The notes beneath the pieces are model-generated. The model was not told the origin of the DNA, did no database searches, and saw only the letters and a program-made list of their open reading frames with translations. From Bacillota bacterium (GTDB taxonomy: Bacteria; Bacillota; Limnochordia; DTU087): DNA of 64,000 nt. Numbering within the stretch: the first letter of the stretch is position 1; each line of letters starts with the position of its first letter. A program made the translations under genes and the position numbers. The DNA lies in contig JAAYQZ010000032.1 of assembly GCA_012519025.1 (NCBI GenBank), forward strand, positions 7 through 64,006. The letters run 5' to 3'. Shown here in pieces: positions 12,680-34,107 of this stretch.

Positions 12680-12692
12680 GCAAAGCGGGGTG

Positions 12693-13538: not shown

Positions 13539-13602
13539 GTCTGTGCCCAGGCACAGGTATGGAAGGAACTCATACACGGAAAACTTTTGATGAGGTGATA
13601 TA

Positions 13603-16190: not shown

Positions 16191-16586
16191 TTACTTATGA
16201 TCCATATCTCTACTTGCCACAAGATCAATCCCTGTCCCCAGCAGGTTTTCGACAACTACAGCCCCGGTTTTGATCGGGGCCTTGAGCTCGATATCGGCCA
16301 AGGCGGTCATAGCTTCATAGAGCAGTTCTTTGGGAATAGCCTCAGTTGTCCGCACTGGCAGCAGTGGCAAAGTGCCTTCAGCGATTTTGACAGTAGTTGT
16401 CAAAACCCGCACAGGATTAAGGACTTCATTTCTTCCGTACTCCTCACCTCTGCGGCAGTCGGCTCCTGTAACTTCAATTAAATCGCCGACAATCTTAACT
16501 TCCAGTTGGCAGCCGGTGGGGCATACAATACAAGTCATGTTTCGAATTTCTTCTTTGACCGCGGTGGTAGCTTTTGTGTCTTTCAT
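16191..16586 (-). CDS. DUF1667 domain protein (accessory subunit of GlpA-like flavoenzyme cluster)
   Basis: CIVCPTGCQLEV motif and a size of ~130 aa. Overlaps the stop of the upstream oxidoreductase gene by 4 nt. Confidence 0.75.
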   Translation of the reverse strand: MKDTKATTAVKEEIRNMTCIVCPTGCQLEVKIVGDLIEVTGADCRRGEEYGRNEVLNPVRVLTTTVKIAEGTLPLLPVRTTEAIPKELLYEAMTALADIELKAPIKTGAVVVENLLGTGIDLVASRDMDHK

Positions 16587-17893
16587 TGCCGCACCCCTTC
16601 CCTTTGTGCTCTTGGAGATGGCACGGGCTGTGCCTTTGCATCTAACACAAGCTCAAGTGAAGTTTCACCATTTTCCTGTTTGAGTTTTTCCCAGTGATCT
16701 TTTCTCAGTCTGATCTTCAACATCTCACTTGGTCTTACAAGCCGCCTTACGGCAAGCCGCACACCCCCGAGCTCTATGGTGATGCGATCGATTGGTTTGG
16801 TTACTCTTAGATAGAATTCAGTTTCTGCATCGGGGTCCAGACGCTGTGGCAGTACGTAGCTTACGTTCTCACCGGGTATAACCGTGATTTTTTCCTGTCT
16901 TGTGTCACCGTCTCTTAGTGCATACTCTGCCGCGGCTCGCCCGGCAATTTCTGCCTCCTCACTGACATAATCAACGAGATCGTGAACATGCAGTACATTG
17001 CCGGCAGCAAAAATGCCGGGGATGAGAGTTTGCCTGTTTTGATCGACGACTGCACCTTGTGTGCGGCTGTCCAGCGGCACATCAGCCATTTGTGTAAGTT
17101 CATTTTCAGGCAGCAACCCCACTGAGAGAAGTAAAGTGTCGCAAGGTATATGCATTTCTGTGCCGGGCAGCGGCTGCCAAGCATCATCGACTTGACTTAC
17201 CGTAACCCCTTCCACTCGATCTTTGCCGTGAACTTTTGTAACCGTGGAACGCAGATAAAGGGGAATATCGAAGTCTTCCAGACACTGTGCAATATTTCTA
17301 GTCAATCCTGCAGGATAAGGCATCACTTCCACGACCGCTTTTACTTCGGCTCCCTCCAAGGTAAAGCGCCGGGCCATAATCAGCCCAATATCACCGGAAC
17401 CAAGAATGACAACTTTTTTTCCGGGCATAAAACCGTCCATATTCACAAATCGCTGGGCGGCTCCGGCTGTGTAAACGCCGGCAGGTCGTGTGCCGGGAAT
17501 ATTTAAAGCCCCTCGAGTCCTTTCACGACAGCCCATAGCCAATACAGTCGCTTTTGGTCTTAGAGTTATAAGACCGTGGGATGGATGCACGGCAGTAATG
17601 CTTTGGTCTTTGGCCAAGTCCAATACCATCGTGTTTAAATAAACATCTATCTTGGGATCATCCCAAACTTCGGGAATAAACCGATAGGCATACTCAGGAC
17701 CAGTTAGTTCTTCGCGGAAGCGGTGCAGCCCAAATCCATTGTGGATGCACTGTTGGAGTATTCCGCCCAGTTCATGATGGCGTTCTATGATCACAACATT
17801 TTCAGCACCGGCTTTACGAGCAGATACGGCTGCGGCTAATCCCGCCGGTCCGCCGCCAATGATGGCAACATCAGTTTCGATTACTTTAGTCAC
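16583..17893 (-). CDS. NAD(P)/FAD-dependent pyridine nucleotide-disulfide oxidoreductase
   Basis: Two dinucleotide-binding motifs: DVAIIGGGPAGLAAA and KVVILGSGDIGLIMA. GNVLHVHD lies near the FAD site. Confidence 0.85.
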   Translation of the reverse strand: MTKVIETDVAIIGGGPAGLAAAVSARKAGAENVVIIERHHELGGILQQCIHNGFGLHRFREELTGPEYAYRFIPEVWDDPKIDVYLNTMVLDLAKDQSITAVHPSHGLITLRPKATVLAMGCRERTRGALNIPGTRPAGVYTAGAAQRFVNMDGFMPGKKVVILGSGDIGLIMARRFTLEGAEVKAVVEVMPYPAGLTRNIAQCLEDFDIPLYLRSTVTKVHGKDRVEGVTVSQVDDAWQPLPGTEMHIPCDTLLLSVGLLPENELTQMADVPLDSRTQGAVVDQNRQTLIPGIFAAGNVLHVHDLVDYVSEEAEIAGRAAAEYALRDGDTRQEKITVIPGENVSYVLPQRLDPDAETEFYLRVTKPIDRITIELGGVRLAVRRLVRPSEMLKIRLRKDHWEKLKQENGETSLELVLDAKAQPVPSPRAQREGVRQ

Positions 17894-19355
17894 AGAGTGT
17901 TCCCCCTTTCAAGAGAGCTTTAGCCTCTGCGGCTAAAAGATAGCTGTCTCCACCTCGTTTGGTTATTTCCAAGGGACTTACCCCAAGTTCCCGGGCTAGT
18001 ATATCGACTACATAAGGAGTACAAAAGCCCCCTTGGCAGCGACCCATTCCGGCTCTTGTGCGGAATTTGACCCCATCTATAGTTTTGGCCCCACGGCGAA
18101 TAGCGTCGACAATCTCACCTTCAGTAACAGTCTCACAACGGCAAATTACGTGGGCATAGAGGGGGTTTTTTTGGATGACTTCTGCTTTTTCTTCATCAGA
18201 TAATTCGTTAAACCGCACAACTCGTGGTCGTCGTGGGTTGAAATCCTTTTTGGCCGGTTTCTCTAACCCCGCATCTTTCAATAAAGTCAGCACATGTTCG
18301 GCGATGGCCGGAGCTGCTGTCAAACCGGGCGACTCAATGCCCCTCAAATGCACGCCTTTACCATCATGGGATAGCTGGAAAATAAAGTCGCCTGTCGGAG
18401 AGCCGGCTCTGACGCCGGCAAAGGAAGTGATAATATCTCGCCGGTTTAGACCCGGAACAAGCTCTTGGGTTGAACTAAAGATCTCTTCAAAGCCTTGGGG
18501 AGTTGTTGTTACATCGTCTTTATAAGGCAGTTCTAAAGCTGTGGGGCCAATCATTATATTGCCTTCCGCAGTTGGAATAACTAAGATTCCTTTGGAGGTT
18601 GGAGTGGGAACGGGGAAGATGGTGTGGCTGACTATATCGCCGACTTTAAGGTCAAAAAGATACTCTTCACCTTTGCGGGGGATGATGGGCTCGATATCAA
18701 GGTTACACATTTTCGCCAACTCATCGGCATAAAGGCCTGCTGAGTTGATGAGATACTCTGACGTAAAAGACATGCCCTGCTTTGTGTGAATGATAAACAC
18801 ACTGCCGTTATAGTCAATATCAGTGACTTCCATGTCTGTATAAACGTGGGCACCGTTGGCAGCCGCATTTTCTGCCTGGGCACTGGCCAATTCAAAGGGC
18901 AGTACAATACCGCCGGATGGCGCTCTAAGTGCCATGCTTATTTGCGGGGATAAGTTAGGTTCCAACTGATGAAGGGCCTTCTGATCTAGTATCTCCATAC
19001 CTTCCACACCATTTATAAGGCCCTGGTTATAATAATGTTTGATGATTTCTTCTTCTTCTGGGGTTGCGGCTACAAGCATCATACCGTTGCGCTTGAAAGG
19101 CACATCGAGATCCTCGCACAGCTGATCAAACATTTGGTTCCCCAAAACGCTCAGCTTAGTTTTCCAGGTCCCCGGTTCTGAATGGAAACCTGAGTGGACT
19201 ATACCGCTGTTGGCTTTAGTTACGCCCCAGCCCACTTCTGTTTCTTTTTCCAGTAAGGCTGCTGACAGCTCTAATTTGGCAAGGGTCCGCAAAACAGCTG
19301 TTCCTACGACACCTCCGCCGATGACAATTGCATCATAGTGGCTTCGTTTTCCCAA
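17886..19355 (-). CDS. FAD-dependent oxidoreductase, glycerol-3-phosphate dehydrogenase/oxidase-like, with BFD-like [2Fe-2S] domain
   Basis: YDAIVIGGGVVGTA FAD motif. C-terminal CRCETVTEGEI ... GRCQGGFC is a BFD-like cluster motif. The ORF track extends to 19448, but TTG 19355 lies 6 nt after GAAGAGGTG and directly precedes the FAD motif. Confidence 0.8.
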   Translation of the reverse strand: MGKRSHYDAIVIGGGVVGTAVLRTLAKLELSAALLEKETEVGWGVTKANSGIVHSGFHSEPGTWKTKLSVLGNQMFDQLCEDLDVPFKRNGMMLVAATPEEEEIIKHYYNQGLINGVEGMEILDQKALHQLEPNLSPQISMALRAPSGGIVLPFELASAQAENAAANGAHVYTDMEVTDIDYNGSVFIIHTKQGMSFTSEYLINSAGLYADELAKMCNLDIEPIIPRKGEEYLFDLKVGDIVSHTIFPVPTPTSKGILVIPTAEGNIMIGPTALELPYKDDVTTTPQGFEEIFSSTQELVPGLNRRDIITSFAGVRAGSPTGDFIFQLSHDGKGVHLRGIESPGLTAAPAIAEHVLTLLKDAGLEKPAKKDFNPRRPRVVRFNELSDEEKAEVIQKNPLYAHVICRCETVTEGEIVDAIRRGAKTIDGVKFRTRAGMGRCQGGFCTPYVVDILARELGVSPLEITKRGGDSYLLAAEAKALLKGGTLCD

Positions 19356-19619
19356 CCACTTCACCTCTTCATTTGGTATGTGAGAATGCAAAAAGCTCCC
19401 AAGATCCAGGGTACACAAATACCCCCGGCATCTCAGGAACTTCTCCATGTCTCCTGTCCTGATGTTCCAGGTATCGTTGAATTGTTGCTTGATTCAATTC
19501 TACAACTAAAATCAAAGATTGGCAAGGTTAATCTGCCATTTGACCCATCTCCACGCGGTTAAACCCTGTTTTTGGTATCCTTGCGGAGTCTAATGCATAA
19601 TCTCCTATAAAAGCAAAAA

Positions 19620-20477: not shown

Positions 20478-21452
20478 TTGAGTGTGATTAATATTCACCG
20501 GCTGGACGAGCTGGAGATAAAAATGCTGACCCATCTGCAGCGAGATGGGCGCAGCTCTTACACATCGTTAGCTGAAAGGTGTGATGTGGCGGAGGGCACC
20601 ATTCGCAAGCGCTTGCGCAGGCTCCAAAACCGGGGTGTTTTGCGCATAAAAGGGGTTGCCGATCCTGCCCGCACCGGTATGGATACCGCGGCTGTTGTGT
20701 GGCTCCGTGTGGAGCGGGGTAAGCTAATGGATGTGGCCGCGCAGATTACGGCCCTGCATCATGCCCATTACGTTGCATATACCACCGGTGCTTCGGATAT
20801 TTTAGCTATTGTTACATTATCGTCCCAGGACGAATTGATGCGGTTTTTGACTTATGATCTTGGCTCAATCAAAAATCTAACGGAAGTTGAGACCTCAATG
20901 GTCCTAAAGACCTACAAACAGCCCTACCGTTGGGCGCCCTGGTCAAGCGGGGCACCGGAAACTTCTGCCGGTGCCGGTGACACTTTTGAGCCGGATGAAA
21001 TTGATTTAAAGATCATCGACTATTTAGAACAAGACGGCCGCATGACCTTTGTCACCATTGCTGAAGCGCTTGGGATTACAGAAAGTACGGTGCGGCGCCG
21101 AGTTACCGCTATTTTAGAAAGCAAAATCATGGAGATAGCATCGATCATCAATCCTGCCCGTGTGGGATACACAACCGCGGCCATGATTGGAATCAAGGTC
21201 GAAAGAGCCAGGTTGCAGACTGTCGTACAAGAACTGACCGGGCTTCCCGAAGTCCGGTATCTCGCTCTTTCCACAGGGAAGTATGATCTAATCATTGAGG
21301 TAGTGCAGGAATCTAATGAAAACCTTTTAGATTTTCTCGTAGGACGTTTGGAGGAACTGCCGGGAATAATTCGCACGGACACGCATTTATTGTTGAAGCT
21401 CTCCAAAGAAACTTATAACTGGGGTGTGGCCCACAAACACCAAGCCACTTGA
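20478..21452 (+). CDS. fused tandem Lrp/AsnC-family regulator (two HTH + two RAM-like modules)
   Basis: Two repeats of the Lrp/AsnC pattern: LDELEIKMLTHLQRDGRSSYTSLAERCDVAEGTIRKRLRRLQNRGVL and PDEIDLKIIDYLEQDGRMTFVTIAEALGITESTVRRRVTAILESKIM. Each repeat is followed by a ~70-aa effector-like domain. Confidence 0.75.
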   Translation: MSVINIHRLDELEIKMLTHLQRDGRSSYTSLAERCDVAEGTIRKRLRRLQNRGVLRIKGVADPARTGMDTAAVVWLRVERGKLMDVAAQITALHHAHYVAYTTGASDILAIVTLSSQDELMRFLTYDLGSIKNLTEVETSMVLKTYKQPYRWAPWSSGAPETSAGAGDTFEPDEIDLKIIDYLEQDGRMTFVTIAEALGITESTVRRRVTAILESKIMEIASIINPARVGYTTAAMIGIKVERARLQTVVQELTGLPEVRYLALSTGKYDLIIEVVQESNENLLDFLVGRLEELPGIIRTDTHLLLKLSKETYNWGVAHKHQAT

Positions 21453-22430: not shown

Positions 22431-22491
22431 TTTAAGGAACCGGTCAGCCCAAAATTGGCCAAAGTCCAATATATGCTAAATTTGCAGTTTG

Positions 22492-22516
22492 AAGCCTGCC
22501 CAAAGCAGGCTTTTTG
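22492..22516 (+). terminator. rho-independent terminator after murB
   Basis: AAGCCTGC-ccaaa-GCAGGCTT stem-loop followed by a TTTT run. It separates murB from the BMC operon. Confidence 0.75.
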
Positions 22517-22658
22517 CATAACAACAGTGCAAAATGTGCTTATTTTCCCAGTGGGCAGGAATGTCTGTCAATCTGGGCGAAAATAAATAGAGAAATAGAT
22601 AGTTTAGTAAATAAAAGCATTTTGATACTAAAGCCGGCTGATAAGGAGGCTTTTTAGA

Positions 22659-23432
22659 TTGATGTCGGAATTTCAACTTAAAAGAGATATTATCGAAGTG
22701 GGTCGGCGTATATACAACAGCGGATTTGTTGCCGCAAATGATGGCAACATCAGTGTGCGCCTCAGCGACAAGCTCATATTAACGACACCTACCGGTGTAA
22801 GCAAAGGTTTCATGACACCGGATATGATTGTCACCTGTGATATGGATGGCAATGTAGTCAGCGGCAGTTGGCGACCTTCCTCAGAGTTAAAGATGCATTT
22901 GGCTGTCTACAAGGCCAGAGAGGATGTAAAATCAGTTGTTCACGCCCATCCTCCTTATGGAACGGCTTTTGCGGTGGCCGGTTTCGCGCTGGAAAAACCA
23001 ATCATGCCGGAGGTTGTGATTAATTTAGGTTGGGTGCCTTTAACTCAATATGGGACACCATCTACTGAGGAGATCCCCGATGCTGTCCTGCCGTATCTCC
23101 CCCGCCATGACGCTTTTTTACTGCAGAACCATGGGGCTCTCACCGTAGGTTCTGATCCGTACAATGCGCTTTTTAAGATGGAGACCTTGGAGATGGGTGC
23201 CAAGATCAGCTTGCTCGCGAGGTTATTGGGAGGCGAAAAAGAGATCAGTCCTCCGGATGTGGACAGGCTGATTGATCTAAGACAAAGCATGAACATGCCG
23301 GGGATGCACCCGGGACTGGAAAGCACCGCTCAAAACCAGGCCCCGGTTGAAAACAGTGTGACAGGGCTTGATGAGAAGCGTTTGCGGGAGATTGTCACTA
23401 ATGTAGTAAAAGAGGTAATAAAAAATAGTTAA
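22659..23432 (+). CDS. class II (FucA/RhaD-type, zinc) aldolase with C-terminal encapsulation-peptide-like tail
   Basis: Class II aldolase motifs [23 protein letters not shown] and QNHGALTVG. The ~210-aa core is followed by a Pro/Gly/Gln linker and the amphipathic tail [21 protein letters not shown]. Confidence 0.85.
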
Positions 23433-23452
23433 TTGAGAGGGGAGTCTTACTA

Positions 23453-23731
23453 GTGGGTGAAGCCTTAGGTCTTAATGAAACAAAAGGATTGATCGGTGCA
23501 ATTGAAGCTGCAGATGCCATGGTAAAGGCAGCCAATGTGGAACTGGTCGGACATGAAAGAATTGGCTCTGGTTATATTTGTGTTATGGCGCGGGGCGATG
23601 TTGGAGCCATTCGAGCGGCAGTTGAAGCCGGCAGTGCGGCGGCCGCTAAAGTCTCCGAAGTTGTAGCGGCTCATATCATTCCCCGGCCCCATGCCGATGT
23701 TGAGCAGGTAATGTTATCCCGTGCCAAATAG
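23453..23731 (+). CDS. BMC-H shell protein (PduA/EutM-type hexamer)
   Basis: Canonical single BMC domain: [30 protein letters not shown]...[13 protein letters not shown]...HIIPRPH. Confidence 0.9.
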
Positions 23732-23816
23732 CATTCTCAAGTGACCTTGGCAGAAGGGAGGGAAGCCGCACCCTGCTGCTTACATTTGTCAGTAATCGGG
23801 GTGTCGTGCTTATACT

Positions 23817-25214
23817 GTGCCACTTAACGAAGAACGAATCAGTGCCATTGTAAAGGAAGTTGTAAAACAGCTCACCGCATCCAGGCATATTCCGGATATT
23901 GTTGCAGGCGATAACGGAATTTTTGATGATGTGGATAGTGCAGTCAAGGCCGCGGCAGCGGCTCAAAAAGAGCTTGCGGCAATGTCTATCGCCCAGCGGG
24001 AGACGATTGTTGGGGCCATCCGCGGGGCAGGAGAAAGTAATGCCCAATATTTTGCCAGACGTTCAGTTGATGAAACCGCGTTGGGCAAATATGAACACAA
24101 AGTACAAAAAAACATCAACGCGTCCAGGCTATCTCCCGGTACGGAAGAGCTCGTTCAAACCGTGCAAAATGGTGATCACGGTATAACTATTACCCGCAGA
24201 GCGCCTTACGGCGTGATCGTATCCATTACACCAACAACACACCCGACTCCCATGATTATCAACCATGCCATAATTATGTTGGCCGGGGGCAATACTGTGT
24301 TTTTCTGTCCTCACCCAAGGGCTCAGATGATTTCAAGGGAAGCCATTCAAATATTAAATCAAGCGATTATTGCTGCCGGCGGGCCTGCAAACTGTTTGGT
24401 GGCAGTGAAAGAGGCGACTCTGGATGCAGTCAATGCTGCCTCAAGTCACCCTTTAGTCGACATGGTGACAGCAGCCGGTGGGCCGGGGGTTGTGAAAGCA
24501 GCACTCAGCTCAGGTAAAAAGGCAATAGCAGCCGGTGCAGCCAACCCTCCTGTAGTTGTAGACGAAACCGCAGATATTGCCAAAGCCGCGCGGGATATAG
24601 TGGAAAGTGCGTGGTTTGATAACAACATCTTATGTATCGGGGAAAAGACTGTTTTTGCTGTGGACACTATAGCGGAGACACTGCTTCAGCATATGCAAAA
24701 GCATGGAGCTCATCTGTTGACAGACGATGAAGCCAGGCGGGTCACCGAACTTATCGTTAGGGACGATCATATTGTTGGTGAATGGGTTGGCAAAGATGCG
24801 TCACTTATCCTGCAGGAGGTGGGTATCACACCCGGGGAAGGTATGGTAGGTGCGGTGATGGTTGTCCCGTACGAACACCCGCTGGTCAAGATTGAACAAA
24901 TGCTGCCCATCTTGCCTTTGGTGAAAACAACCGATTTTGCCCAAGGGCTGCAGCTGGCATATGGGACAGAGCAGGGGTTTCGCCATACTGCTGTAATCCA
25001 TTCTCAAAATGTGGAGCGGATTTCACTGTTTGCAAAAACTATGCAGACCACTATTGTCGTTGTCAATGGGCCTGCTTTTGCGTCGCTGGGTATTGATGGG
25101 GATGCTAAATTCGGTCATACGATTGCAAGCCCCACAGGAGAAGGTATCTGCACCACAGCAACTTTCACAAGGCAGCAAAACGTGACAATGGCCGGAGGCC
25201 TCACATTCGCCTGA
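23817..25214 (+). CDS. CoA-acylating aldehyde dehydrogenase (PduP/EutE family) with N-terminal encapsulation-peptide-like helix
   Basis: GAANPPVVVDETAD and the catalytic-Cys context FDNNILCIGEK. The N-terminus MPLNEERISAIVKEVVKQL is amphipathic. Confidence 0.9.
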   Translation: MPLNEERISAIVKEVVKQLTASRHIPDIVAGDNGIFDDVDSAVKAAAAAQKELAAMSIAQRETIVGAIRGAGESNAQYFARRSVDETALGKYEHKVQKNINASRLSPGTEELVQTVQNGDHGITITRRAPYGVIVSITPTTHPTPMIINHAIIMLAGGNTVFFCPHPRAQMISREAIQILNQAIIAAGGPANCLVAVKEATLDAVNAASSHPLVDMVTAAGGPGVVKAALSSGKKAIAAGAANPPVVVDETADIAKAARDIVESAWFDNNILCIGEKTVFAVDTIAETLLQHMQKHGAHLLTDDEARRVTELIVRDDHIVGEWVGKDASLILQEVGITPGEGMVGAVMVVPYEHPLVKIEQMLPILPLVKTTDFAQGLQLAYGTEQGFRHTAVIHSQNVERISLFAKTMQTTIVVVNGPAFASLGIDGDAKFGHTIASPTGEGICTTATFTRQQNVTMAGGLTFA

Positions 25215-25277
25215 CAGCGGTGCTTGATTTTGATCCAATAATACTAAGCAGGCAGCCGGATATTTGAGGTGAATTGG

Positions 25278-26636
25278 TTGGGGCAGTTAATGGAAAGAAA
25301 CACCATTATCCAAAGGGTCAAATCAGCAGGAGTAGTTGGTGCCGGTGGTGCCGGTTTTCCCACCCATGTGAAACTGGCCGGTTGGGCAGATACTGTAATC
25401 GCCAATGGGGCGGAGTGTGAGCCTTTGCTTGCAGTTGACAAAGCTCTTTTGGCCGAGCATCCCGAAGAGGTGCTTGCTGGTCTTCAAGCTGCTAAAACGG
25501 CCGTTGGTGCAAGCAAAGTCATAGTTGCGCTCAAAGCCAAACATAAAAGGCTCACAGCTGCATGGGAACGCAAAGCGGCAATATATGCTTGGCTGCAGAT
25601 TATAGGATTGCCGGATGTTTATCCCATAGGAGATGAACATGTGCTTGTTCACGAGCTGTTGGCGCGGACTATACCGCCGGGGGGCATCCCTCCAGATGTA
25701 GGGGCTGTTGTACTGAATATCGAAACACTATACAACATCGGCAGGGCAATGGACGGGATACCGGTAACACACAGCTTTGTAACTGTGACAGGTGCGGTTG
25801 CTTCCGCTAAAACCATGGCTGTCCCTGTGGGAACTGCAGTATGTGATGTTCTAAAGTTGGTGCAGCCGCTGCATGGACCGGGTGATTTTGCCGTAGTTGA
25901 AGGCGGCCCCATGATGGGGCGCTTGCTTCTTGATCTTAAAGAGCCGATTACCAAGACTACAAAGGGTCTGATTGTGCTGCCCAAAACCCACCAGGTGATC
26001 AGTAATTTTCACTCCAAATCCGAAGCCTTTAAACACCAATTCAGCGTCTGCAGCCAATGCACCATGTGTACCGACTTGTGTCCTCGCCATCAGCTCAACC
26101 ACCCGATTGCGCCCCACAGGATAATGCGGGCCCTTATAGGTGGGGAAGAGGTTGTAAACGCATTCAAGTCCAGCGAAGTCCTGCAGGGTGCATTGTTTTG
26201 CAGCGAATGTGGAATTTGTGATATGTTTGCTTGTTTTATGGGTTTATCGCCTCGCACTGTCAACCAGTTTTTAAAGGCAAAATGGACAGGTTTGCGGCCT
26301 GAATCTAAGCCTGATTGCCGACGGCCTGTTTTTGGAGGCAATTTGATTCCCACAGCTCGGCTGCTGCATCGTTTGGGTTTATCAAATTGGGAAAGTCCCA
26401 CAGCGCTGATGCCGTACACGGCAGCGCCTTCTAGTGTAAGGATCAAGTTAAAGCAACAGATTGGTTTACCAGCTCATCCCGTGGTTGCAGAGGGAGATCA
26501 AGTAAGTTTCGGTGAAATAATTGGGAAGGTGTCTGCGGAGGGTCTGGGAGCCTGTGTACATGCCAGTATCGGTGGAGTTGCTGTATCTGTCCAAAACGAT
26601 GAAATTCTAATCAGGCGGTGGGACCATGACACATAA
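25278..26636 (+). CDS. PduS/RnfC-like Fe-S flavoprotein (NuoF-like nucleotide/FMN motif, 2x[4Fe-4S], C-terminal barrel-sandwich domain), copy 1
   Basis: GVVGAGGAGFPTHVKL (NuoF/RnfC-type motif) and NGAECEPLL. Cys clusters CSQCTMCTDLCP and CSECGICDMFAC. The C-terminal GDQVSFGEIIGKVSAEGLGACVHASIGG resembles the RnfC N-terminal hybrid barrel. The likely start is TTG 25278, 6 nt after GAGGTG. Confidence 0.8.
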   Translation: MGQLMERNTIIQRVKSAGVVGAGGAGFPTHVKLAGWADTVIANGAECEPLLAVDKALLAEHPEEVLAGLQAAKTAVGASKVIVALKAKHKRLTAAWERKAAIYAWLQIIGLPDVYPIGDEHVLVHELLARTIPPGGIPPDVGAVVLNIETLYNIGRAMDGIPVTHSFVTVTGAVASAKTMAVPVGTAVCDVLKLVQPLHGPGDFAVVEGGPMMGRLLLDLKEPITKTTKGLIVLPKTHQVISNFHSKSEAFKHQFSVCSQCTMCTDLCPRHQLNHPIAPHRIMRALIGGEEVVNAFKSSEVLQGALFCSECGICDMFACFMGLSPRTVNQFLKAKWTGLRPESKPDCRRPVFGGNLIPTARLLHRLGLSNWESPTALMPYTAAPSSVRIKLKQQIGLPAHPVVAEGDQVSFGEIIGKVSAEGLGACVHASIGGVAVSVQNDEILIRRWDHDT

Positions 26637-27195
26637 TGCCCTTTGTTCCAACTTTGTTGATGCACTGGCTGTAGTGGAGTTTAGAAGCATTGCGCGGGGT
26701 TTGGAATGCGTAAACAGCTTGTTGAAAAACTTTCCGGTTGAATTGGTTATCTTGAAAACACTTTGCCCGGGTAAAATTTTGGCGTCTTTCACCGGAGAAA
26801 TTGCTGCTGTGCAAAATGCACTTGAGACAGCCAAAAATGGTGATTTAACTTATATTGATGATTTTATGCTGGGCAACCCGGTGCCCCAGTTGATAGCGGC
26901 TGTGCGGGGCGTTACCCCCGCCGCTGACCATGGAGCCTTAGGAGTGATGGAAACTTTCACAGCCAGTCAAGGTTTTGTGGCTGCAGATACAGCTGTTAAG
27001 GCTTCGGGAGTCAGCTTAGTCAAGATACATATCGCCAGGGGATTGGCCGGCAAAGCGCACATATATCTTACCGGCAGTCTGGGACAAGTAGAAGCTGCCA
27101 TTGCTGCCGTAGAAGAAAGGTTTCACCCTCAGGTGCTGGGAGAGCAGACTATCGTTGCTTCACCGGATCCGAGAACCTGGGAGGCAGTATGGTAA
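26626..27195 (+). CDS. BMC-T shell protein, PduT-like (tandem BMC domains, conserved pore Cys), paralog 1
   Basis: Two BMC repeats. KTLCPGKILASFTGEI aligns with the Salmonella PduT KTICPGKFLLMLGGDI segment, which carries the [4Fe-4S]-ligating Cys. Overlaps the upstream stop by 11 nt. Confidence 0.85.
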   Translation: MTHNALCSNFVDALAVVEFRSIARGLECVNSLLKNFPVELVILKTLCPGKILASFTGEIAAVQNALETAKNGDLTYIDDFMLGNPVPQLIAAVRGVTPAADHGALGVMETFTASQGFVAADTAVKASGVSLVKIHIARGLAGKAHIYLTGSLGQVEAAIAAVEERFHPQVLGEQTIVASPDPRTWEAVW

Positions 27196-27230
27196 TCAGT
27201 TCGCGACATAGAGTGCGTGGGGAGGAAGAT

Positions 27231-28439
27231 ATGCTCACCTTAGTACTTAATTGCGGCGGTTCGTCGGTCAAATATCAATTAGTGGAAATGCCTGCTGAGA
27301 AAGTGATTGCCCGGGGTGATGTCCAGCGCATCGGCAGTCATAACGCAGATTTCCGGCAGGAAGTTCGGGGTAAAACTATCTTGCAACGCACTTTACCGGT
27401 AGCAGACCACAGTGCTGCCATCGGACTGGCATTGGAAACATTAGCCCATCCAGAGCACAGAGTGATCGAGGATTTTCGGCAGATCGATGCCGTGGGTCAC
27501 AGAGTAGTCCACGGCGGTGAAAAATGTACGGGCTCACTTTTAGTCACCAAACAGGTTATCGATGTTTTAAAAGAGTTTTACGATCTTGCACCTTTACACA
27601 ATCCACCTAATGTGGAAGGTATTGAGGCATGCAGCAAACTGATGCCCAAAACCCCCCAAGTGGCTGTTTTTGACTCAAGTCTGCATCAGACTGTTCCCGC
27701 CCGCGCACACATTTATGCCATTCCTTACGAGTATTATGAAAAACACAGAGTGCGGCGTTACGGGTTTCACGGAATTACTTTCCGTTATATGACCAACCGG
27801 GCCGCGGAGCTTTTAAACAGACCCTTGGAAGACTTGAAAATTGTTAATCTGATGCTTGGCAGCGGCACTACGGCTTGTGCTTTTAAAAACGGTAAATCCG
27901 TGGATGTAAGTACAGGGCTCACACCTACGGAGGGGCTTATCCAATCGACCCGCTCAGGTGATCTCGATCCCCTGGTTGTGACTTATTTGATGAGACAGGA
28001 ATCTCTAGATGCTGATGCCGTCGATTTGATCTTGAACCGGGAAAGCGGCTGGTTCGGCATTTCAGGTGTCAGCAGTGACTTAAGAGATGTTTTGGAGGCT
28101 AGTGAAAGCGGCCATGCCAGAGCGAAATTAGCTGTAGATGCTTTTGCGTATCGGACTAAAAAGTACATCGGGGCCTATGCTGCGGCCATGGGGGGCATCG
28201 ATGTTTTGATCTTTTCCGGAGGGGTGGGAGAAAGATCCCCCGAGATTAGAGAGGCGGTTTGTCAAGACTTGGAGTTTTTAGGAATACAGCTGGATGCCGT
28301 GGCCAATTACTCCGAGGAAGTTGAGAAAAATATTGCACAGTCGGGCTCTTCAGTTGATGTTTTAGTGATTCCCACAGATGAAGAAATCGTCATTGCCAGA
28401 GATACTTTTGCTATTGTAAGGCGGGAAGGCTATGACTGA
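27231..28439 (+). CDS. ackA: acetate (acyl-phosphate) kinase
   Basis: LVLNCGGSSVKYQL, GHRVVHGG, HNPPN, FHGITF and SGGVGE motifs. ATG 27231 lies 5 nt after GGAGG. No encapsulation-like extension is visible. Confidence 0.9.
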   Translation: MLTLVLNCGGSSVKYQLVEMPAEKVIARGDVQRIGSHNADFRQEVRGKTILQRTLPVADHSAAIGLALETLAHPEHRVIEDFRQIDAVGHRVVHGGEKCTGSLLVTKQVIDVLKEFYDLAPLHNPPNVEGIEACSKLMPKTPQVAVFDSSLHQTVPARAHIYAIPYEYYEKHRVRRYGFHGITFRYMTNRAAELLNRPLEDLKIVNLMLGSGTTACAFKNGKSVDVSTGLTPTEGLIQSTRSGDLDPLVVTYLMRQESLDADAVDLILNRESGWFGISGVSSDLRDVLEASESGHARAKLAVDAFAYRTKKYIGAYAAAMGGIDVLIFSGGVGERSPEIREAVCQDLEFLGIQLDAVANYSEEVEKNIAQSGSSVDVLVIPTDEEIVIARDTFAIVRREGYD

Positions 28440-28977
28440 GGCAGTGGGGATTCTGGAGTTGCAAGGAATTGGCCCCGGTTATTTGGCAGCACATTGGATT
28501 GACAAACACACAGCTATTGCCATGATATTTACAGGAACTATCTGCCCCGGTCACTTTTTAATTATGTTTGCCGGTACAGTGGCTGATGTTGCCTGGGCGC
28601 AAGAACAGGCTGCCGGTTTGACGGAATCTGCCGTTATTTCCCAAGGGTTGCTGACCAACATCCACCCTGAAGTACTGCCGGCAGTACAAAATCTGCAAAA
28701 GAAGCAGCCGCAAGGTGCATTAGGGGTGTTTGAGGTTTTAGGGGCGGCATCGGCAGTGGTTGCAGCGGACAGCATGGTTAAAGGTGCCGCGGTGGAACTA
28801 TTCGACATACGCTTTGCCGGTGGTATGGGAGGAAAGGCTGTAATACTTTGCCAGGGGAAAGTTGAAGCAGTGGAGGCTGCTTTAGAGCAAGCCGCCCGGG
28901 TTGTGGATGTCAAAAGTTTAGTTGGTACCGCTGTGCTCGCTTCGCCCCATCCCGAACTTTTATCCCACTGGCAGTAG
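28432..28977 (+). CDS. BMC-T shell protein, PduT-like, paralog 2
   Basis: AVGILELQGIG...GTICPGHFLIMFAGTVADV...NIHPEVLPAV, then a second BMC repeat ALGVFEVLGAASAVVAADSMVKG. Overlaps the ackA stop by 8 nt. Confidence 0.85.
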   Translation: MTEAVGILELQGIGPGYLAAHWIDKHTAIAMIFTGTICPGHFLIMFAGTVADVAWAQEQAAGLTESAVISQGLLTNIHPEVLPAVQNLQKKQPQGALGVFEVLGAASAVVAADSMVKGAAVELFDIRFAGGMGGKAVILCQGKVEAVEAALEQAARVVDVKSLVGTAVLASPHPELLSHWQ

Positions 28978-28995
28978 ATAAAGGAGGCGATACTC

Positions 28996-29289
28996 TTGCA
29001 GGTGGCAAGGGTCGTGGGAAATGTTGTGGCTACCCAAAAAGATCCCAAATTGGTCGGATTTACGCTCCAGCTTGTACAGCCCATTGATATAACTACAGAA
29101 ATGCCTACAGGCAGCCCGCTTGTGGCAGCAGATACGGTGGGGGCCGGTGTTCAAGACATAGTTATGATCGTAGGGGGCAGTTCTGCTCGGTTGACTATAA
29201 AAACAGCCGATTCCCCTGTGGATGCTGCTATAGTCGGTATTATCGATACGGTGAATATTTTAGGGGAGACAATGTACAGCCGCAGCTGA
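28996..29289 (+). CDS. BMC-P vertex protein (EutN/CcmL family), copy 1
   Basis: MQVARVVGNVVATQKD...VAADTVGAGVQDIVMIVGGSSAR...VDAAIVGIID. AAGGAGG RBS 8 nt before the TTG. Confidence 0.9.
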   Translation: MQVARVVGNVVATQKDPKLVGFTLQLVQPIDITTEMPTGSPLVAADTVGAGVQDIVMIVGGSSARLTIKTADSPVDAAIVGIIDTVNILGETMYSRS

Positions 29290-29351
29290 GTACCGTCGGT
29301 TTGAAAGGAGAAATGGAGGCTCGGTATTGAGGACAGTCTCCGCGAGAAACT

Positions 29352-29615
29352 ATGAAATTCGGTAAAGTCATCGGCAGTGTCACTGCCACAATCAAAGATC
29401 CGGGTCTGCAAGCACTCAAGTTCCACGTTGTTCAGGCCTTGGATGAAAAGTTGAGGCCCTTACCATCCACTTATATTGCTGCAGATGCTGTGGGGCAGGT
29501 CGGACTTGATGATATTGTGACAGTGGTGTTTAGCCGCGATGCGGCAGAGGCCTTTTTGACAATCACACCTCCTGTGGATGCCAGTATTGTCGGGATAGTG
29601 GCTCAAACGGTTTAG
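29352..29615 (+). CDS. BMC-P vertex protein (EutN/CcmL family), copy 2
   Basis: MKFGKVIGSVTATIKD...IAADAVGQVGLDDIV...VDASIVGIV. Confidence 0.9.
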   Translation: MKFGKVIGSVTATIKDPGLQALKFHVVQALDEKLRPLPSTYIAADAVGQVGLDDIVTVVFSRDAAEAFLTITPPVDASIVGIVAQTV

Positions 29616-29666
29616 TTTGAATGTGCAGTGCCAATAGAGAGGTTAGGGCATAAGGAGTGCAAAACT

Positions 29667-29915
29667 GTGTATCTTGCCGAGGTCATAGGGCCGGTTGTTT
29701 GTACAGTAAAACACCAGGCTTACAATGGGAAAACCATGCTTTTGATCGTCCCTCTTGAAGGAGAAGCCGCTGGTTATGAGATTGCAGTTGATTATGTTGG
29801 GGCTGGTGTAGGTGATATCGTGCTTGCCGGGGGAGCCCCGGGAGCAGCTCAGGACATATTTGGACTAGAACAAGCACCAATCAGAACATTGATTATGGGA
29901 ATTATTGATCCTTGA
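29667..29915 (+). CDS. BMC-P vertex protein (EutN/CcmL family), copy 3
   Basis: (V)YLAEVIGPVVCTVKH...VDYVGAGVGDIVLAGG...TLIMGIID. GTG 29667 lies 7 nt after AAGGAGTG, whereas the ORF track begins at 29628. Confidence 0.85.
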   Translation: MYLAEVIGPVVCTVKHQAYNGKTMLLIVPLEGEAAGYEIAVDYVGAGVGDIVLAGGAPGAAQDIFGLEQAPIRTLIMGIIDP

Positions 29916-29965
29916 GTCTTAAGCCCACAACAAGCCGGCCAACGAAACTAAAGGAGGCGGCACAC

Positions 29966-30631
29966 TTGAATGAAGCGGATTTACGCATTCTTGTAGATGA
30001 AATCACCCAACAGATTTTAGCAGCAAATCAAAGGGAAAGCCTTTTAAAGCAAGAGGAAGATTGGCTGCCGGTCGGTGTTTCAGTGCGCCATGTACACATT
30101 TCATCCCATGATCTTGAAGTATTGTATGGTCCCGGCTGCACACTGACACCGCTGCGGGAGCTTTACCAGGTGGGTGAGTATGCGTGTAAGGAAGTTGTCG
30201 CCTTGGTGGGCCCAAGAATGCGGGCATTGGAAAGTGTACGGATTCTCGGGCCTGTGCGGGAAAAAACTCAAGTGGAAGTATCTAGAACAGACGCTGTTTA
30301 CCTCGGTATTGATCCGCCGGTGCGGGCATCGGGAGACCTTACCGGCTCCAGCCCCATTACATTGGTGGGGCCCAAGGGTACGCTGGTCCTGCAAGAAGGT
30401 GCCATTGTCGCCAACCGCCATATTCATATGAACAGCACTGACGCGAACCGATATGGTGTTGTTGATAACGACATTGTCAAGGTAGAAGTGCTCGGTGATA
30501 AAGGACTGGTTTTCAACAACGTTCAAATCCGTGTTCAAGACTCCTTCCGTTTGCAGATGCATGTCGATACCGATGATGCCAATGCTTCTGGAATCACAAA
30601 CGGGGCCAAAGCTCGGATCCTGCCAAAATAA
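29966..30631 (+). CDS. pduL: phosphate acyltransferase PduL with N-terminal encapsulation-peptide-like helix
   Basis: Two PduL repeats with metal-binding His motifs: VGVSVRHVHIS and ANRHIHMNS. TTG 29966 lies 8 nt after AAGGAGG and gives the N-terminus MNEADLRILVDEITQQILAAN. Confidence 0.9.
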   Translation: MNEADLRILVDEITQQILAANQRESLLKQEEDWLPVGVSVRHVHISSHDLEVLYGPGCTLTPLRELYQVGEYACKEVVALVGPRMRALESVRILGPVREKTQVEVSRTDAVYLGIDPPVRASGDLTGSSPITLVGPKGTLVLQEGAIVANRHIHMNSTDANRYGVVDNDIVKVEVLGDKGLVFNNVQIRVQDSFRLQMHVDTDDANASGITNGAKARILPK

Positions 30632-30675
30632 AGAACCTGCATCTTTCACAGTATGATTTGCAAGGAGGCCCGCCG

Positions 30676-32064
30676 GTGGAAGTGAGCATAAATACACTGC
30701 TTAGCAAAGTCAAAGATGCCGGAGTAGTTGGCGCCGGCGGCGCAGGATTTCCCACCCATGTGAAGCTCGCCGGTGAAGTAGATACCATTGTGATCAATGG
30801 GGCAGAATGTGAGCCTTTGCTGGATGTGGATATACAGCTTTTGGAAAATGAGGCAGAATCGCTGCTTACCGGACTTGAGCTTTTAGTTCGCATACTGGGG
30901 GCCAAAGAGGGCATTGTTGCTTTAAAGGCCAAACATGAAAAAGCAAAAGAGCGCCTTAGGGAAGTGTTGGCCGGAAAGGATAAGGCAAGCAAGCTCAGAT
31001 TGCATTTGCTGGATGACTTTTATCCTGTCGGTGATGAGCCCATTTTGCTTTATGAGGTGGTGGGGAAGGTAGTGCCTGAGGGCAATATTCCCCTTGTTTT
31101 AAAATGCCTTGTAATCAATGTGGAGACATTGAAAAATATTATAAGGGCAATAGATGGCAAACCAGTTATTACAACTTGTGTGACAGTAGCAGGAAGAGTA
31201 AAAGAGCCCGGCACTTTTGAAATACCGGTGGGAGCCTCTATCAAATGGCTTTTAGAGGCTGTCGGCGGAGCTGATTTAGACGATTATGGGGTAATGGTCG
31301 GTGGTCCCATGACCGGCACTGTTTTAAGCAAAGCAGAAGTAGAACAAAACACATCAAAGCCGGGCCACATGCCGGTTATCACAAAAACCACAAAAGCTGT
31401 TTTGGTGCTGCCGGCAGACCACAGTATCTTTCGCCATCACGCTCTAAATATAGGTGTTGTTTTACAAAGGGCCCAATCGGCATGCTGCCAATGCAGGCTT
31501 TGCACAGATCTATGTCCCCGCTACTTGTTGGGTTATGAAATTGAGCCCCACCTTGCTTTAAATAGGATCAACCACGGACAGACCCAGGATCCGGCAGCGA
31601 TTACCCATGCGTTTTTGTGTTCAGACTGTGGTGTATGTGAGCTTTATGCTTGTCCTGTCGGTCTCTCGCCGAGGCGAATCTACCAGGCTTTCAAAGAAGA
31701 GCTGCTCAAACAAGGTGTAGCAAATCCCCATATAAAAGCAAAACCACCCAAGGGGCCAAGGGAGGCCTGGGCCGGTCGCCACATCCCCACCAACCAACTG
31801 TTGTTGAGATTGGGACTTGGGGGATATGAGCAGAAAGCCCCCTGGAGACAGTTAAAAGTCCTGCCTTCCCGAGTAACCATTCCCTTAAAACAGCATGTGG
31901 GAGTACCGGCGGAGCCTTTGGTTCAGAAAGGTGAAATAGTCGAGGCCGGTCAATTAATAGGGGAACCACCGGTTTCTGCACTGGGTGCATCAATACACTC
32001 AAGCATCAATGGTCGAATTTCAGAAGTCACTGAAAAAGCCGTGGTGATTCAAATTGATGGTTAG
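30676..32064 (+). CDS. PduS/RnfC-like Fe-S flavoprotein, copy 2
   Basis: GVVGAGGAGFPTHVKL and NGAECEPLL. Cys clusters CCQCRLCTDLCP and CSDCGVCELYACP. C-terminal barrel-like KGEIVEAGQLIGEPPVSALGASIHSSINGRI. GTG 30676 lies 7 nt after AAGGAGG. Confidence 0.8.
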   Translation: MEVSINTLLSKVKDAGVVGAGGAGFPTHVKLAGEVDTIVINGAECEPLLDVDIQLLENEAESLLTGLELLVRILGAKEGIVALKAKHEKAKERLREVLAGKDKASKLRLHLLDDFYPVGDEPILLYEVVGKVVPEGNIPLVLKCLVINVETLKNIIRAIDGKPVITTCVTVAGRVKEPGTFEIPVGASIKWLLEAVGGADLDDYGVMVGGPMTGTVLSKAEVEQNTSKPGHMPVITKTTKAVLVLPADHSIFRHHALNIGVVLQRAQSACCQCRLCTDLCPRYLLGYEIEPHLALNRINHGQTQDPAAITHAFLCSDCGVCELYACPVGLSPRRIYQAFKEELLKQGVANPHIKAKPPKGPREAWAGRHIPTNQLLLRLGLGGYEQKAPWRQLKVLPSRVTIPLKQHVGVPAEPLVQKGEIVEAGQLIGEPPVSALGASIHSSINGRISEVTEKAVVIQIDG

Positions 32065-32692
32065 TGCCTCAAAACAGCACAAAAAGGGTCGTCAGCCATT
32101 TGATGCTCTAGGATTCCTGGAGATTCAGGGGGCAGCCCGGGGAATACAGGCTTTGGATGCGGGATGTAAAACAGCTTCAATTAATGTGCTAAAAGCTAAT
32201 GTTGCCTGCCCTGATAAATACACCATACTTTTCACTGGGTCTGCAGAAGATGTCGCGGCTGCATATAGCGCGGCTGCAGCCGCGATCGGGGCAGGCTATT
32301 ATGACGGCTGTCAGATCGGGCGAGTGCATCCAGATTTAGCCCATGGTCTAATGGGTATTTTTGGTCATACCGGTTGTGAGCGAAATGCGGGTTGGGAATC
32401 TGCACCCAAAGGTGAGAGCGATACCCCAAAAGGCAGCGATGCTGTAGGCGTGCTTGAGACTTTGTCAATTGCCTCGGGGATCAAAACAGCCGATTGTGCC
32501 CTTAAAGCAGGGTATGTAGTACTTAAAGAACTGCATTTAGGTTATGCACTCGGCGGCCGCAGTTATTGGCTGATAACCGGCGACACAGCTGCAGTACAGG
32601 CTGCGATGGAAGCTGCTGCAGACTGCGGTAAGGAACTTGGAAGGCTTGGGAGTTATTCCTTAATTTTGCAGCCGGGAACGCAAGTGTCTTAA
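32054..32692 (+). CDS. BMC-T shell protein, PduT-like with enlarged inter-domain linker, paralog 3
   Basis: Repeat 1 is ALGFLEIQGAARG...KANVACPDKYTILFTGSAEDV, with the Cys at the PduT position. A ~35-aa linker follows (GHTGCERNAGWESAPKGESDTPKGS). Repeat 2 is AVGVLETLSIASGIKTADCALKAG. Overlaps the upstream stop. Confidence 0.75.
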   Translation: MMVSASKQHKKGRQPFDALGFLEIQGAARGIQALDAGCKTASINVLKANVACPDKYTILFTGSAEDVAAAYSAAAAAIGAGYYDGCQIGRVHPDLAHGLMGIFGHTGCERNAGWESAPKGESDTPKGSDAVGVLETLSIASGIKTADCALKAGYVVLKELHLGYALGGRSYWLITGDTAAVQAAMEAAADCGKELGRLGSYSLILQPGTQVS

Positions 32693-32806
32693 AGCCAGCA
32701 CGCCAGGTCGGCAGTTGCGTCTTGGTGCCAGAATTGAGCGAAAGTTGATTAAAAGAAGGAGCGCAAAACTCCAGGGAAGAATTATATATTGAGGAGGGTT
32801 AGTGTG

Positions 32807-34039
32807 ATGGTACCGAAGCCCGAACCTAGAATCAAGCGGTTTGAAGAATTGGCATATGGGATGTTTATTCATTGGGGCCTTTACTCTTTGTTGGGTAAGG
32901 GAGAATGGATCATGCACCAGGCGAATATTCCCAAAGAGGAATATGCAAGATTAAAACATGAGTTTCGAGCCGACGAATTCCATGCACGGGCTGTAGCAAA
33001 GCTTGCGCGGACGGCGGGTATGCGCTACATCACAATTACGTCAAGACATCATGATGGTTTCTCTTTATACGATACACGGGGTCTAAGTGATTATGATGCC
33101 CCCAACAGTGCCGCGGGGCGGGATCTGATTGCCGAATTTGTGGAAGGCTGTAATGCAGAAGGGATTTTGCCGTTTTTTTATCATACCACACTGGATTGGT
33201 ATCAGGAAAGTTTTCAGGAGGATTTTACCGGTTATCTGGAGTACTTGAGGAGTTCAGTCAAGCTTTTGTGCACAAACTACGGTAAAATCGGGGGTTTGTG
33301 GTTTGACGGCAATTGGAGCAGGCCTGACGCAGATTGGGAACTTGACGCATTATATGGGCTGATTCGCAAATACCAACCGGAAGCCATGATCATCAACAAC
33401 ACCGGTCTTGAGGCCAGAGGCCGGATAATTCACCATGAGATTGACAGTGTTACCTTTGAGCAGGGACGCCCTTTGCCTTTGGAAAGGGAGGGTATGGAGA
33501 AATATGTTTCCGGCGAAATGTGTCAGACTATGAACCAACACTGGGGGTTAGGAGAGCGAGATTTTGCTTATATGTCGCCCAGGGAGCTGATTGAAAACTT
33601 CGCGGCTTGTCGCAAAGTTGGGGCTAACTATCTGCTGAATGTCGGACCCACCGCTTCCGGCCGTATCCCCGATTATGAAGCTGCCGCACTTTTGCGGGTG
33701 GGACAGTGGATTGAGCTTTATGGCGATTTGATGTATAAAGGCAGACCTACTACAATAAAGGGCTCCGGAGATGACTTTGCCTTAGAATATGACGGCAAAA
33801 TTTATCTGTTTGTGTATAATTTGTCGGTGCGAGGCGACAAAAATGTAGTTCGTATGACTTCGGGCGCTGGTCCACGGCTGTTTACAGATTGGGAGCAGCC
33901 AGTGAGGTGTGTACGCTGGTTGGATAATGATGAGGAACTTGCATTCACCCATGATGCAGACCGAGCATGGTTGGTTGTAGATGCTGCCGGATATCCATAT
34001 GGGACCAATTTGGTTGTGCGAGTGGCAGAGGTGACATAG
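32807..34039 (+). CDS. GH29 alpha-L-fucosidase, no signal peptide
   Basis: YGMFIHWGLYS, ITITSRHHDGFSLYD, GGLWFDGNW and ANYLLNVGP are typical GH29 blocks. The start lies behind a GAGGAGGG RBS. Confidence 0.85.
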   Translation: MVPKPEPRIKRFEELAYGMFIHWGLYSLLGKGEWIMHQANIPKEEYARLKHEFRADEFHARAVAKLARTAGMRYITITSRHHDGFSLYDTRGLSDYDAPNSAAGRDLIAEFVEGCNAEGILPFFYHTTLDWYQESFQEDFTGYLEYLRSSVKLLCTNYGKIGGLWFDGNWSRPDADWELDALYGLIRKYQPEAMIINNTGLEARGRIIHHEIDSVTFEQGRPLPLEREGMEKYVSGEMCQTMNQHWGLGERDFAYMSPRELIENFAACRKVGANYLLNVGPTASGRIPDYEAAALLRVGQWIELYGDLMYKGRPTTIKGSGDDFALEYDGKIYLFVYNLSVRGDKNVVRMTSGAGPRLFTDWEQPVRCVRWLDNDEELAFTHDADRAWLVVDAAGYPYGTNLVVRVAEVT

Positions 34040-34080: not shown

Positions 34081-34107
34081 GCTGACCTTGTGGTCAGCCT
34101 TTTCTTT
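34081..34107 (+). terminator. rho-independent terminator closing the BMC/fucosidase operon
   Basis: GCTGACC-ttgt-GGTCAGC stem-loop followed by CTTTTCTTT. Confidence 0.75.

Follow-up and report, generated by a model that had tools for sequence, protein, structure and literature searches.

Which substrate does a bacterial microcompartment (BMC) consume when its operon lacks every classical signature enzyme, and where does such an organelle belong among the catalogued types? The question is raised by a 64-kb stretch of DNA from a Bacillota bacterium (contig JAAYQZ010000032.1 of assembly GCA_012519025.1, referred to here as the window), in which 14 tightly packed genes run in one direction from 22662 to 34039. 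They encode a class II aldolase, a coenzyme A (CoA)-acylating aldehyde dehydrogenase (AldDH), the phosphotransacylase PduL (PTAC), an acetate/propionate-family kinase, two flavo-iron-sulfur proteins of the PduS/MNdh type, one BMC-H, three PduT-type tandem-domain trimers, three BMC-P and a GH29 alpha-L-fucosidase. A first-pass annotation, made from the letters alone, had predicted these co-directional genes with this domain content, and the list of open reading frames (ORFs) together with a Pfam scan (E-values about 1e-19 or better) bears it out. The same annotation had pointed to the absence of classical signature enzymes: domains of PduCDE, EutBC, a glycyl-radical enzyme or RuBisCO were indeed found neither in the operon nor in the scanned window ORFs of at least 90 amino acids, five of which, all outside the operon, have no Pfam match. 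This leaves the aldolase, as had been proposed, as the sole candidate for generating an aldehyde. We hold with moderate confidence that the locus encodes a catabolic BMC (metabolosome) of the family that combines aldolase, AldDH, PTAC, acetate kinase and PduS-PduT, and that it would convert a deoxyhexose to lactate. In the published BMC catalogue (Sutter et al. 2021, Nat Commun 12:3809) the types to compare are above all MIC4 and MUF3.

The enzymes of the operon are individually recognizable. The aldolase keeps a glutamate and three histidines that align with the catalytic Glu and the metal-binding His triad of the structures 6voq and 6btd. The AldDH falls into the EutE/PduP-type subfamily (547 bits with NF011927, whose cut-off is 403), and the kinase matches TIGR00016 at 440 bits. 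Amphipathic, linker-separated tails resembling encapsulation peptides are found on three proteins only: at the aldolase's C-terminus, where the tail motif is kept in homologues; at the AldDH's N-terminus (MPLNEERISAIVKEVVKQL), as a helix that homologues also keep; and at the N-terminus of PduL (LNEADLRILVDEITQQIL). Because neither the kinase nor the fucosidase has an extension, and the fucosidase has no leader either, both should be cytosolic.

This enzyme set and the placement of the tags fit the route that had been drawn at first pass, from the aldolase via lactaldehyde, lactyl-CoA and lactyl-phosphate to lactate and ATP, which stands as the best-supported reading. In the lineage of the window, the cytosolic GH29 enzyme would free L-fucose from imported oligosaccharides, and an isomerase and a kinase encoded elsewhere would supply L-fuculose-1-phosphate or L-rhamnulose-1-phosphate. 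Inside the shell, the tagged aldolase would split the sugar phosphate into dihydroxyacetone phosphate (DHAP) and L-lactaldehyde, the tagged AldDH would turn lactaldehyde into lactyl-CoA with formation of NADH, and the tagged PduL would convert lactyl-CoA to lactyl-phosphate, recycling the CoA. Outside the shell, the untagged kinase would form lactate and ATP. The two PduS/MNdh proteins would regenerate NAD+ in the lumen, their electrons reaching acceptors in the cytosol by way of 4Fe-4S clusters that the PduT-type trimers hold with their pore cysteines.

With an alcohol dehydrogenase absent from the operon, the regeneration of NAD+ must fall to the PduS proteins. Both have the domain order Complex1_51K-(SLBB)-Fer4-RnfC_N, a GAGGAGFP motif for FMN/NADH and two Cys clusters for 4Fe-4S; motif and clusters are kept by both paralogues in five lineages, except that in one of the surveyed loci (L095) paralogue a does not keep its second Cys motif. 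All three tandem trimers are of the PduT type, each with a pore cysteine that aligns with the CPGK motif of the PduT structures 3n79 and 3pac and that all paralogues retain throughout the orthologous loci. From these proteins we infer the direction of electron flow and the kind of acceptor. The arrangement is that of the MNdh/BMC-T^SE scheme of NAD+ recycling described for 361 loci that have AldDh and PduS/T and no alcohol dehydrogenase (Sutter et al. 2024, PNAS 121:e2414220121; PMC11626177). In both cases a PduS homologue with a permuted C-terminal pfam13375 domain, the FMN/NADH motif and two 4Fe-4S sites is encoded directly 5' of a Cys-pore trimer, in a locus with AldDH and without alcohol dehydrogenase. 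The redox module that the first-pass annotation took as a distinguishing substitute for an alcohol dehydrogenase is thus present, although the published scheme makes it less than distinctive. What differs is that the module is duplicated here and joined by an extra, unpaired Cys-pore trimer; multiple copies are not discussed in that paper.

The duplication must be old, because the PduS paralogues are 40% identical and lie in separate clades of the PduS tree, paralogue a with Limnochordia and Neomoorella loci and paralogue b with MUF3-like loci. Every one of the clade's five lineages combines two PduS genes with three Cys-pore trimers, and none of about 130 other surveyed loci does, a set anchored on AldDH or trimer and long enough to annotate; the apparent doubling in L019 and in L111 seems due to split genes. 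That two such divergent copies are each retained in five lineages suggests non-redundant roles. Moreover, PduS is reported to have been characterized first as a corrin reductase (PMC2982820). The two modules might accordingly serve some other redox task, either cobalamin reduction or the import of electrons for a reductive step in the lumen. We give this very little credence, since the operon contains no B12-dependent or radical enzyme, a locus without alcohol dehydrogenase needs another sink for NADH, and MNdh is found only together with AldDh across BMC types (PMC11626177).

For the deoxyhexose-to-lactate pathway, we infer the substrate from several sides. MUF3-like loci with 57-62% identical aldolases have an FGGY kinase and RhaA beside their BMC genes. 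In one of them, at 2839-20777 of L013 from a Firmicutes metagenome-assembled genome (MAG; GCA_009711595.1), one flank consists of EtfB, EtfA, an FAD-linked oxidase and LarA and the other of FGGY kinase and RhaA; judged from its genes, it is a compact rhamnose-to-lactate-to-pyruvate neighbourhood. Lactate as the product fits because this Etf/FAD-oxidase set and LarA lie upstream of the BMC genes there. The co-operonic GH29 gene, present in the window and in L094/L096/L097, counts for a fucose-type substrate. Finally, the PVM organelles follow the same enzyme logic, and for these the degradation of fucose and rhamnose is reported to have been shown experimentally (Erbilgin et al. 2014).

Several observations weigh against this pathway. 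FucI, FucK, RhaA, RhaB, a transporter and a regulator are all missing among the window ORFs of at least 90 amino acids. The lack of a sugar kinase, isomerase and regulator had been listed at first pass as a peculiarity of the operon; none is found in it or in the window, yet this is not distinctive, as the accessible catalogue text on MIC4 lists none either. The aldolase stays below every NCBIfam equivalog cut-off (73-113 bits against 250-400 for the FucA models, 50 against 170 for RhaD), it is about equidistant from FucA structures and from the 5-deoxyribulose-1-phosphate aldolase DrdA (6btd), and comparison with solved structures did not separate a FucA-like from a DrdA-like specificity. Biochemical support for MNdh/BMC-T^SE comes from a GRM1 homologue only (PMC11626177). 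Downstream of the operon the terminator is weak (z only -1.55), and in place of the GH29 gene L007 has Rsm22 and L095 PGM/PMM. The host lineage is uncultured, and the organelle is predicted from its genes.

The ambiguous position of the aldolase also admits a different substrate for the same organelle. Cleavage of another ketose-1-phosphate, such as 5-deoxyribulose-1-phosphate, 5-methylthioribulose-1-phosphate or D-ribulose-1-phosphate, would yield acetaldehyde, glycolaldehyde or methylthioacetaldehyde, which an EutE-like AldDH, PduL and a true acetate kinase could carry on to acetate and ATP. DrdA is the second-best solved relative of an aldolase that reaches no equivalog cut-off, class II aldolases are promiscuous, the best match of the kinase is a generic acetate/propionate kinase, the window ORFs include no deoxyhexose genes, and GH29 is not universal in the clade. 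We nevertheless regard this route as unlikely: DrdA genes sit in three-gene salvage clusters rather than in BMC loci, no DrdK- or DrdI-type kinase or isomerase lies nearby, related BMC loci carry RhaA and an FGGY kinase, and GH29 is co-operonic in two lineages.

The weight of that last point depends on how closely the fucosidase is tied to the operon. The protein matches the structure 8ozu over its full length (434 bits), and of the four lineages in which the downstream gene is visible, two have its gene added to the operon, following the last shell gene in L094/L096/L097 as it does in the window. It might be a mere neighbour that, along with the two ABC exporter genes, was acquired 3' of the BMC operon and is uninformative about the substrate of the organelle. 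GH29 is always accompanied by the same ABC genes, in L007 and L095 the shell genes are followed by other genes, and the copy in the window is set apart by a gap of some 110 nucleotides and by a ribosome-binding site of its own. On the other hand, this gap (114 nucleotides, 32693-32806) contains no terminator-like structure, and in L094 the start of GH29 overlaps the stop of the last shell gene. The GH29 proteins of the two lineages are 75% identical, in line with the 68-78% of the other enzymes of the operon, as expected from co-inheritance, and fucose, the product of GH29, suits the aldolase family. We consider a chance neighbourhood possible and the less likely of the two cases.

Regarding the type of organelle, the locus had been left between PVM-like, SPU-like and a new variant. 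None of these fits; its content matches MIC4 as described in the catalogue. In that source (Sutter et al. 2021, Supplementary Data 2), MIC4 comprises 15 loci, including Firmicutes, and the name MIC refers to an 'incomplete core', meaning the core of alcohol dehydrogenase and PTAC. Its enzymes are given there as an AldDh with N-terminal encapsulation peptide, PTAC, a pfam00596 aldolase and a pfam00871 acetate kinase, and its shell as a single standard BMC-H in some members, always a BMC-P triplet, and a PduS homologue with a Cys-pore PduT-type trimer; its AldDh is said to be closest to those of MUF2/MUF3. The literature we found on MIC4 consists of this catalogue and a gut survey.

All of these features recur in the window. 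The pfam00171 AldDH has its N-terminal encapsulation peptide, and PTAC (pfam06130), the pfam00596 aldolase and the pfam00871 acetate kinase lie in the main locus. The BMC-P triplet consists of adjacent, divergent EutN genes (27-42% identical; b against a 42%, c against a or b 27-37%), and the single BMC-H has the standard KAAN and PRPH motifs, both assignments being made by motif and Pfam rather than by the hidden Markov model (HMM) colour clades of the catalogue, which are green, grey and orange for the BMC-P and H_fuchsia for the BMC-H. PduS with a Cys-pore PduT is present twice over, plus the third Cys-pore trimer, and alcohol dehydrogenase is lacking in MIC4 as well. The ratio of 1 H : 3 T : 3 P that had been put forward as a difference is correctly counted; a BMC-P triplet and, in some members, a single BMC-H already belong to MIC4. 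In a rough neighbour-joining tree of AldDH, computed without bootstrap and with the catalogue sequences left out, the clade of the window is sister to MUF3-like Clostridia loci and apart from MIC4-like loci of other phyla. By its described features, as distinct from a match to the catalogue HMMs, the locus thus appears to belong to the catalogued MIC4 type, sister to MUF3.

Against this background the differences from MIC4 are limited. The window locus has two PduS and three Cys-pore trimers in place of one pair, GH29 is appended, and the gene order is unlike that of MIC4-like loci of other phyla (L090, L064, L081). Neither two PduS genes nor a fucosidase is mentioned in the accessible catalogue text (Sutter et al. 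2021), and the exact architecture is confined to the clade of the window in our survey. One could read this as a genuinely new BMC class beyond the published catalogues. We find this highly improbable: every defining MIC4 component is present, the AldDH adjoins MUF3-like loci in the tree just as the catalogue states for MIC4, and the differences are additions, not replacements. It is possible that the Firmicutes members of MIC4 in the catalogue already have the same architecture. Two things remain unusual: the duplicated PduS/PduT module, joined by a third Cys-pore trimer, and the presence of GH29 in the operon, which is conserved in only part of the clade.

Among the other types MUF3 comes nearest. 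MUF3 loci of Clostridia (Moorella, Thermanaeromonas, Mahella, Peptococcaceae CEB3) belong to the same phylum, share the four enzymes and PduS/PduT, and place PduS next to a Cys-pore PduT; they hold the closest relatives of the enzymes, with 54-63% identity for the aldolase and 44-47% for the AldDH, and of the named ones Moorella and Peptococcaceae CEB3 come nearest. The tags are on the same termini too: the catalogue text names the aldolase's C-terminus and the N-termini of AldDH and PTAC for MUF3, and only the N-terminus of AldDh for MIC4 (Sutter et al. 2021). However, MUF3 has one BMC-P and three BMC-H, the window locus three BMC-P and one BMC-H, and on this count we rejected membership; MUF3-like loci also carry DeoR, an FGGY kinase and RhaA, which the window locus lacks. 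The PVM organelle of Planctomycetes and Verrucomicrobia (Erbilgin et al. 2014) shares the class II aldolase signature, the logic from lactaldehyde to lactate, an acetate kinase and the link to fucose. It differs in occurring in other phyla with another gene order, in recycling NAD+ by a lactate/malate-dehydrogenase-like enzyme, in having DeoR, and in being described as aerobic. The operon has neither lactate/malate-dehydrogenase-type nor DeoR domains and its relatives are Bacillota, so it is no PVM locus.

The PVM-like type of Axen 2014 and GRM5 resemble the window locus in their homologous class II aldolase, Firmicutes hosts and predicted deoxyhexose substrate. The former was rejected on the ratio of one BMC-H to three BMC-P, the missing DeoR and the two MNdh genes. 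GRM5 was rejected on the features tested: its glycyl-radical diol dehydratase and its alcohol dehydrogenase are both missing from the window locus. SPU (Sutter et al. 2021) was rejected because its DeoC-type pfam01791 aldolase and pfam02502 RpiB are absent from the operon and the scanned window ORFs.

The architecture is conserved well beyond a single genome. An identical aldolase is encoded on six metagenome contigs from anaerobic digesters, several of them labelled biogas fermenter metagenome. The order of 13 genes recurs in four further lineages, whose AldDH is identical to that of the window at 76% (L010), 68% (L094/L096/L097), 66% (L007) and 63% (L095, which has a second BMC-H); L014 (AldDH 67%) shows the beginning of the same order before its contig ends. 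Given that independent contigs share it, this order is no product of chance. The named relatives are Bacillota/Firmicutes MAGs, which agrees, as does the Bacillota host lineage itself, with the Gram-positive context proposed at first pass. A metagenome scan with the third trimer added one lineage already known (L096/L097) and otherwise returned unrelated PduS/T loci. The next clade out is represented by L015, a Limnochordia MAG (JBMNJG010000007) with a rearranged locus and an AldDH of 56% identity. In L015 one strand carries this rearranged locus, which has one PduS, two trimers and an aldolase-like gene of weak similarity (29% identity), and the other strand an aldolase-AldDH-kinase set closer to the proteins of the window (59%, 56% and 65%).

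Features of the operon and its boundaries (coordinates are those of the window)
Feature	Coordinates	Strand	Details
Hairpin and U-run, upstream boundary of operon	22491-22518	+	after murB
Promoter-like element GCAGGAATGT-N13-CGAAAATA	22555-22585	+	kept in orthologous loci
Class II aldolase	22662-23432	+	256 aa; PF00596, 5.4e-49
BMC-H	23453-23731	+	92 aa; PF00936, 2.7e-26
CoA-acylating aldehyde dehydrogenase (AldDH)	23817-25214	+	465 aa; PF00171
PduS/MNdh paralogue a	25269-26636	+	Complex1_51K + Fer4_17 + C-terminal RnfC_N; start probably 25278, per L001 call
PduT-type tandem BMC trimer a	26626-27195	+	Pfam; pore Cys in KTLCPGK
Acetate/propionate-family kinase	27231-28439	+	402 aa; PF00871, 3.1e-131, profile positions 2-392
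PduT-type tandem BMC trimer b	28432-28977	+	Pfam; pore Cys in GTICPGH
BMC-P a (EutN_CcmL)	28996-29289	+	97 aa; PF03319, 2.3e-29
BMC-P b (EutN_CcmL)	29352-29615	+	87 aa; PF03319, 1e-19
BMC-P c (EutN_CcmL)	29628-29915	+	95 aa; PF03319, 4.4e-19
PduL/PTAC phosphotransacylase	29912-30631	+	PF06130, 3.9e-73, domain begins at residue 53
PduS/MNdh paralogue b	30658-32064	+	468 aa; Pfam
PduT-type tandem BMC trimer c	32054-32692	+	pore Cys in VACPDK; insertion of ~25 aa between the two domains
GH29 alpha-L-fucosidase (Alpha_L_fucos)	32807-34039	+	PF01120, 2.7e-62
Terminator-like hairpin and U-run, downstream boundary of operon	34081-34107	+	structure scan

Of the stop/start overlaps noted at first pass, four are real (26626/26636, 28432/28439, 29912/29915 and 32054/32064). 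The kinase most likely starts at 27231, giving the 402 residues annotated in relatives, and therefore does not overlap the gene of trimer a; the fucosidase start had to be moved from 32789 to 32804/32807, where a GAGGAGG site precedes it. Both flanking hairpins that had been called were recovered. The upstream one, at 22491-22513, is strong, with a 9-bp stem, a U-run behind it and a folding energy of -15.1 kcal/mol (z -3.3). The downstream one, at 34081-34098, is weaker (7-bp stem with 5 G-C pairs, then UUUUCUUU, -14.2 kcal/mol). A search of the whole window with Rfam returned no riboswitch or leader. About 75-105 nucleotides 5' of the aldolase start, two blocks, GCAGGAATGT and CGAAA(A/G/C)TA(T/A), lie 12-13 nucleotides apart and are common to the window, L010, L094, L014 and L007 within otherwise divergent intergenic DNA; they are not found in L095, whose upstream context differs. 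At this element no sigma-70-type match was found on the + strand. The blocks may resemble SigH-type promoters (AGGA...14 nt...GAAT).

In a bolder version of the lactate pathway, the organelle would burn lactaldehyde in a fully oxidative way and be electrically wired. Two MNdh-trimer conduits with non-redundant roles and the third Cys-pore trimer would carry electrons from NADH in the lumen to one cytosolic acceptor or another as conditions in the digester change, Fe-S trimers would make up a major functional part of the shell, the conserved non-sigma-70 (SigH-like) promoter would drive the operon, and the link to GH29 would amount to the first substrate assignment for MIC4. We offer this as speculation and think it quite unlikely to hold as a whole.

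MIC4 and MUF3 organelles are catalogued and known from their genes, not from experimental characterization. The operonic cytosolic fucosidase in the window and RhaA with a kinase in the sister loci provide a clue to their substrate. The locus also presents a natural case in which NAD+ recycling without alcohol dehydrogenase is reinforced by duplication of the electron conduit, and it offers a reasonable test bed to ask whether shell-embedded iron-sulfur trimers carry the redox load of an organelle in strict anaerobes. This bears on the fermentation of deoxyhexoses from plant and algal glycans in anaerobic digesters. The known taxonomy of BMCs is left unchanged, and a modest handle on MIC4 function is gained.

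Some further observations concern the surroundings of the operon here and in its relatives. The flanks of L012 (10001-12245) are syntenic with those of L095 (8282-20266), and the block of about 9.9 kb from BMC-H to the last trimer is missing in L012; its aldolase adjoins PGM/PMM directly and still has an encapsulation-peptide-like tail. Either L012 has lost the BMC cassette naturally, or it shows the state before insertion.

Upstream of the operon in the window, a cluster on the + strand (10318-15075) encodes a GFO/IDH/MocA oxidoreductase, a ROK-family protein, a xylose-isomerase-like TIM-barrel protein and an SGSH-type sulfatase. Its gene content hints at the use of sulfated sugars in a fucosidase-bearing organism; L007 and L010 have no such GFO/IDH/MocA-ROK-sulfatase cluster upstream of the operon. 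A three-gene set on the - strand (16191-19448), comprising a DAO protein with a BFD-like 2Fe-2S domain, a pyridine-nucleotide-disulfide oxidoreductase and DUF1667, is kept upstream of the operon in both of these loci. It looks like an anaerobic glycerol-3-phosphate dehydrogenase module, and a connection to the DHAP that the aldolase would release is only a thought. At 20478-21452 (+) lies a fused double AsnC/Lrp-type protein with two helix-turn-helix and two ligand-binding domains and weak NirDL-like matches. Its gene stands between an amidase gene and murB in L007, L010, L014 and L094, not in L095, where the upstream context is different. The protein may be siroheme-decarboxylase-like and not a BMC regulator. 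Further upstream, a 726-residue ORF (7246-9426, +) joins a phosphotransferase system EIIC domain (residues 30-353) to a C-terminal EAL-type cyclic di-GMP phosphodiesterase domain (463-698), an unusual fusion.

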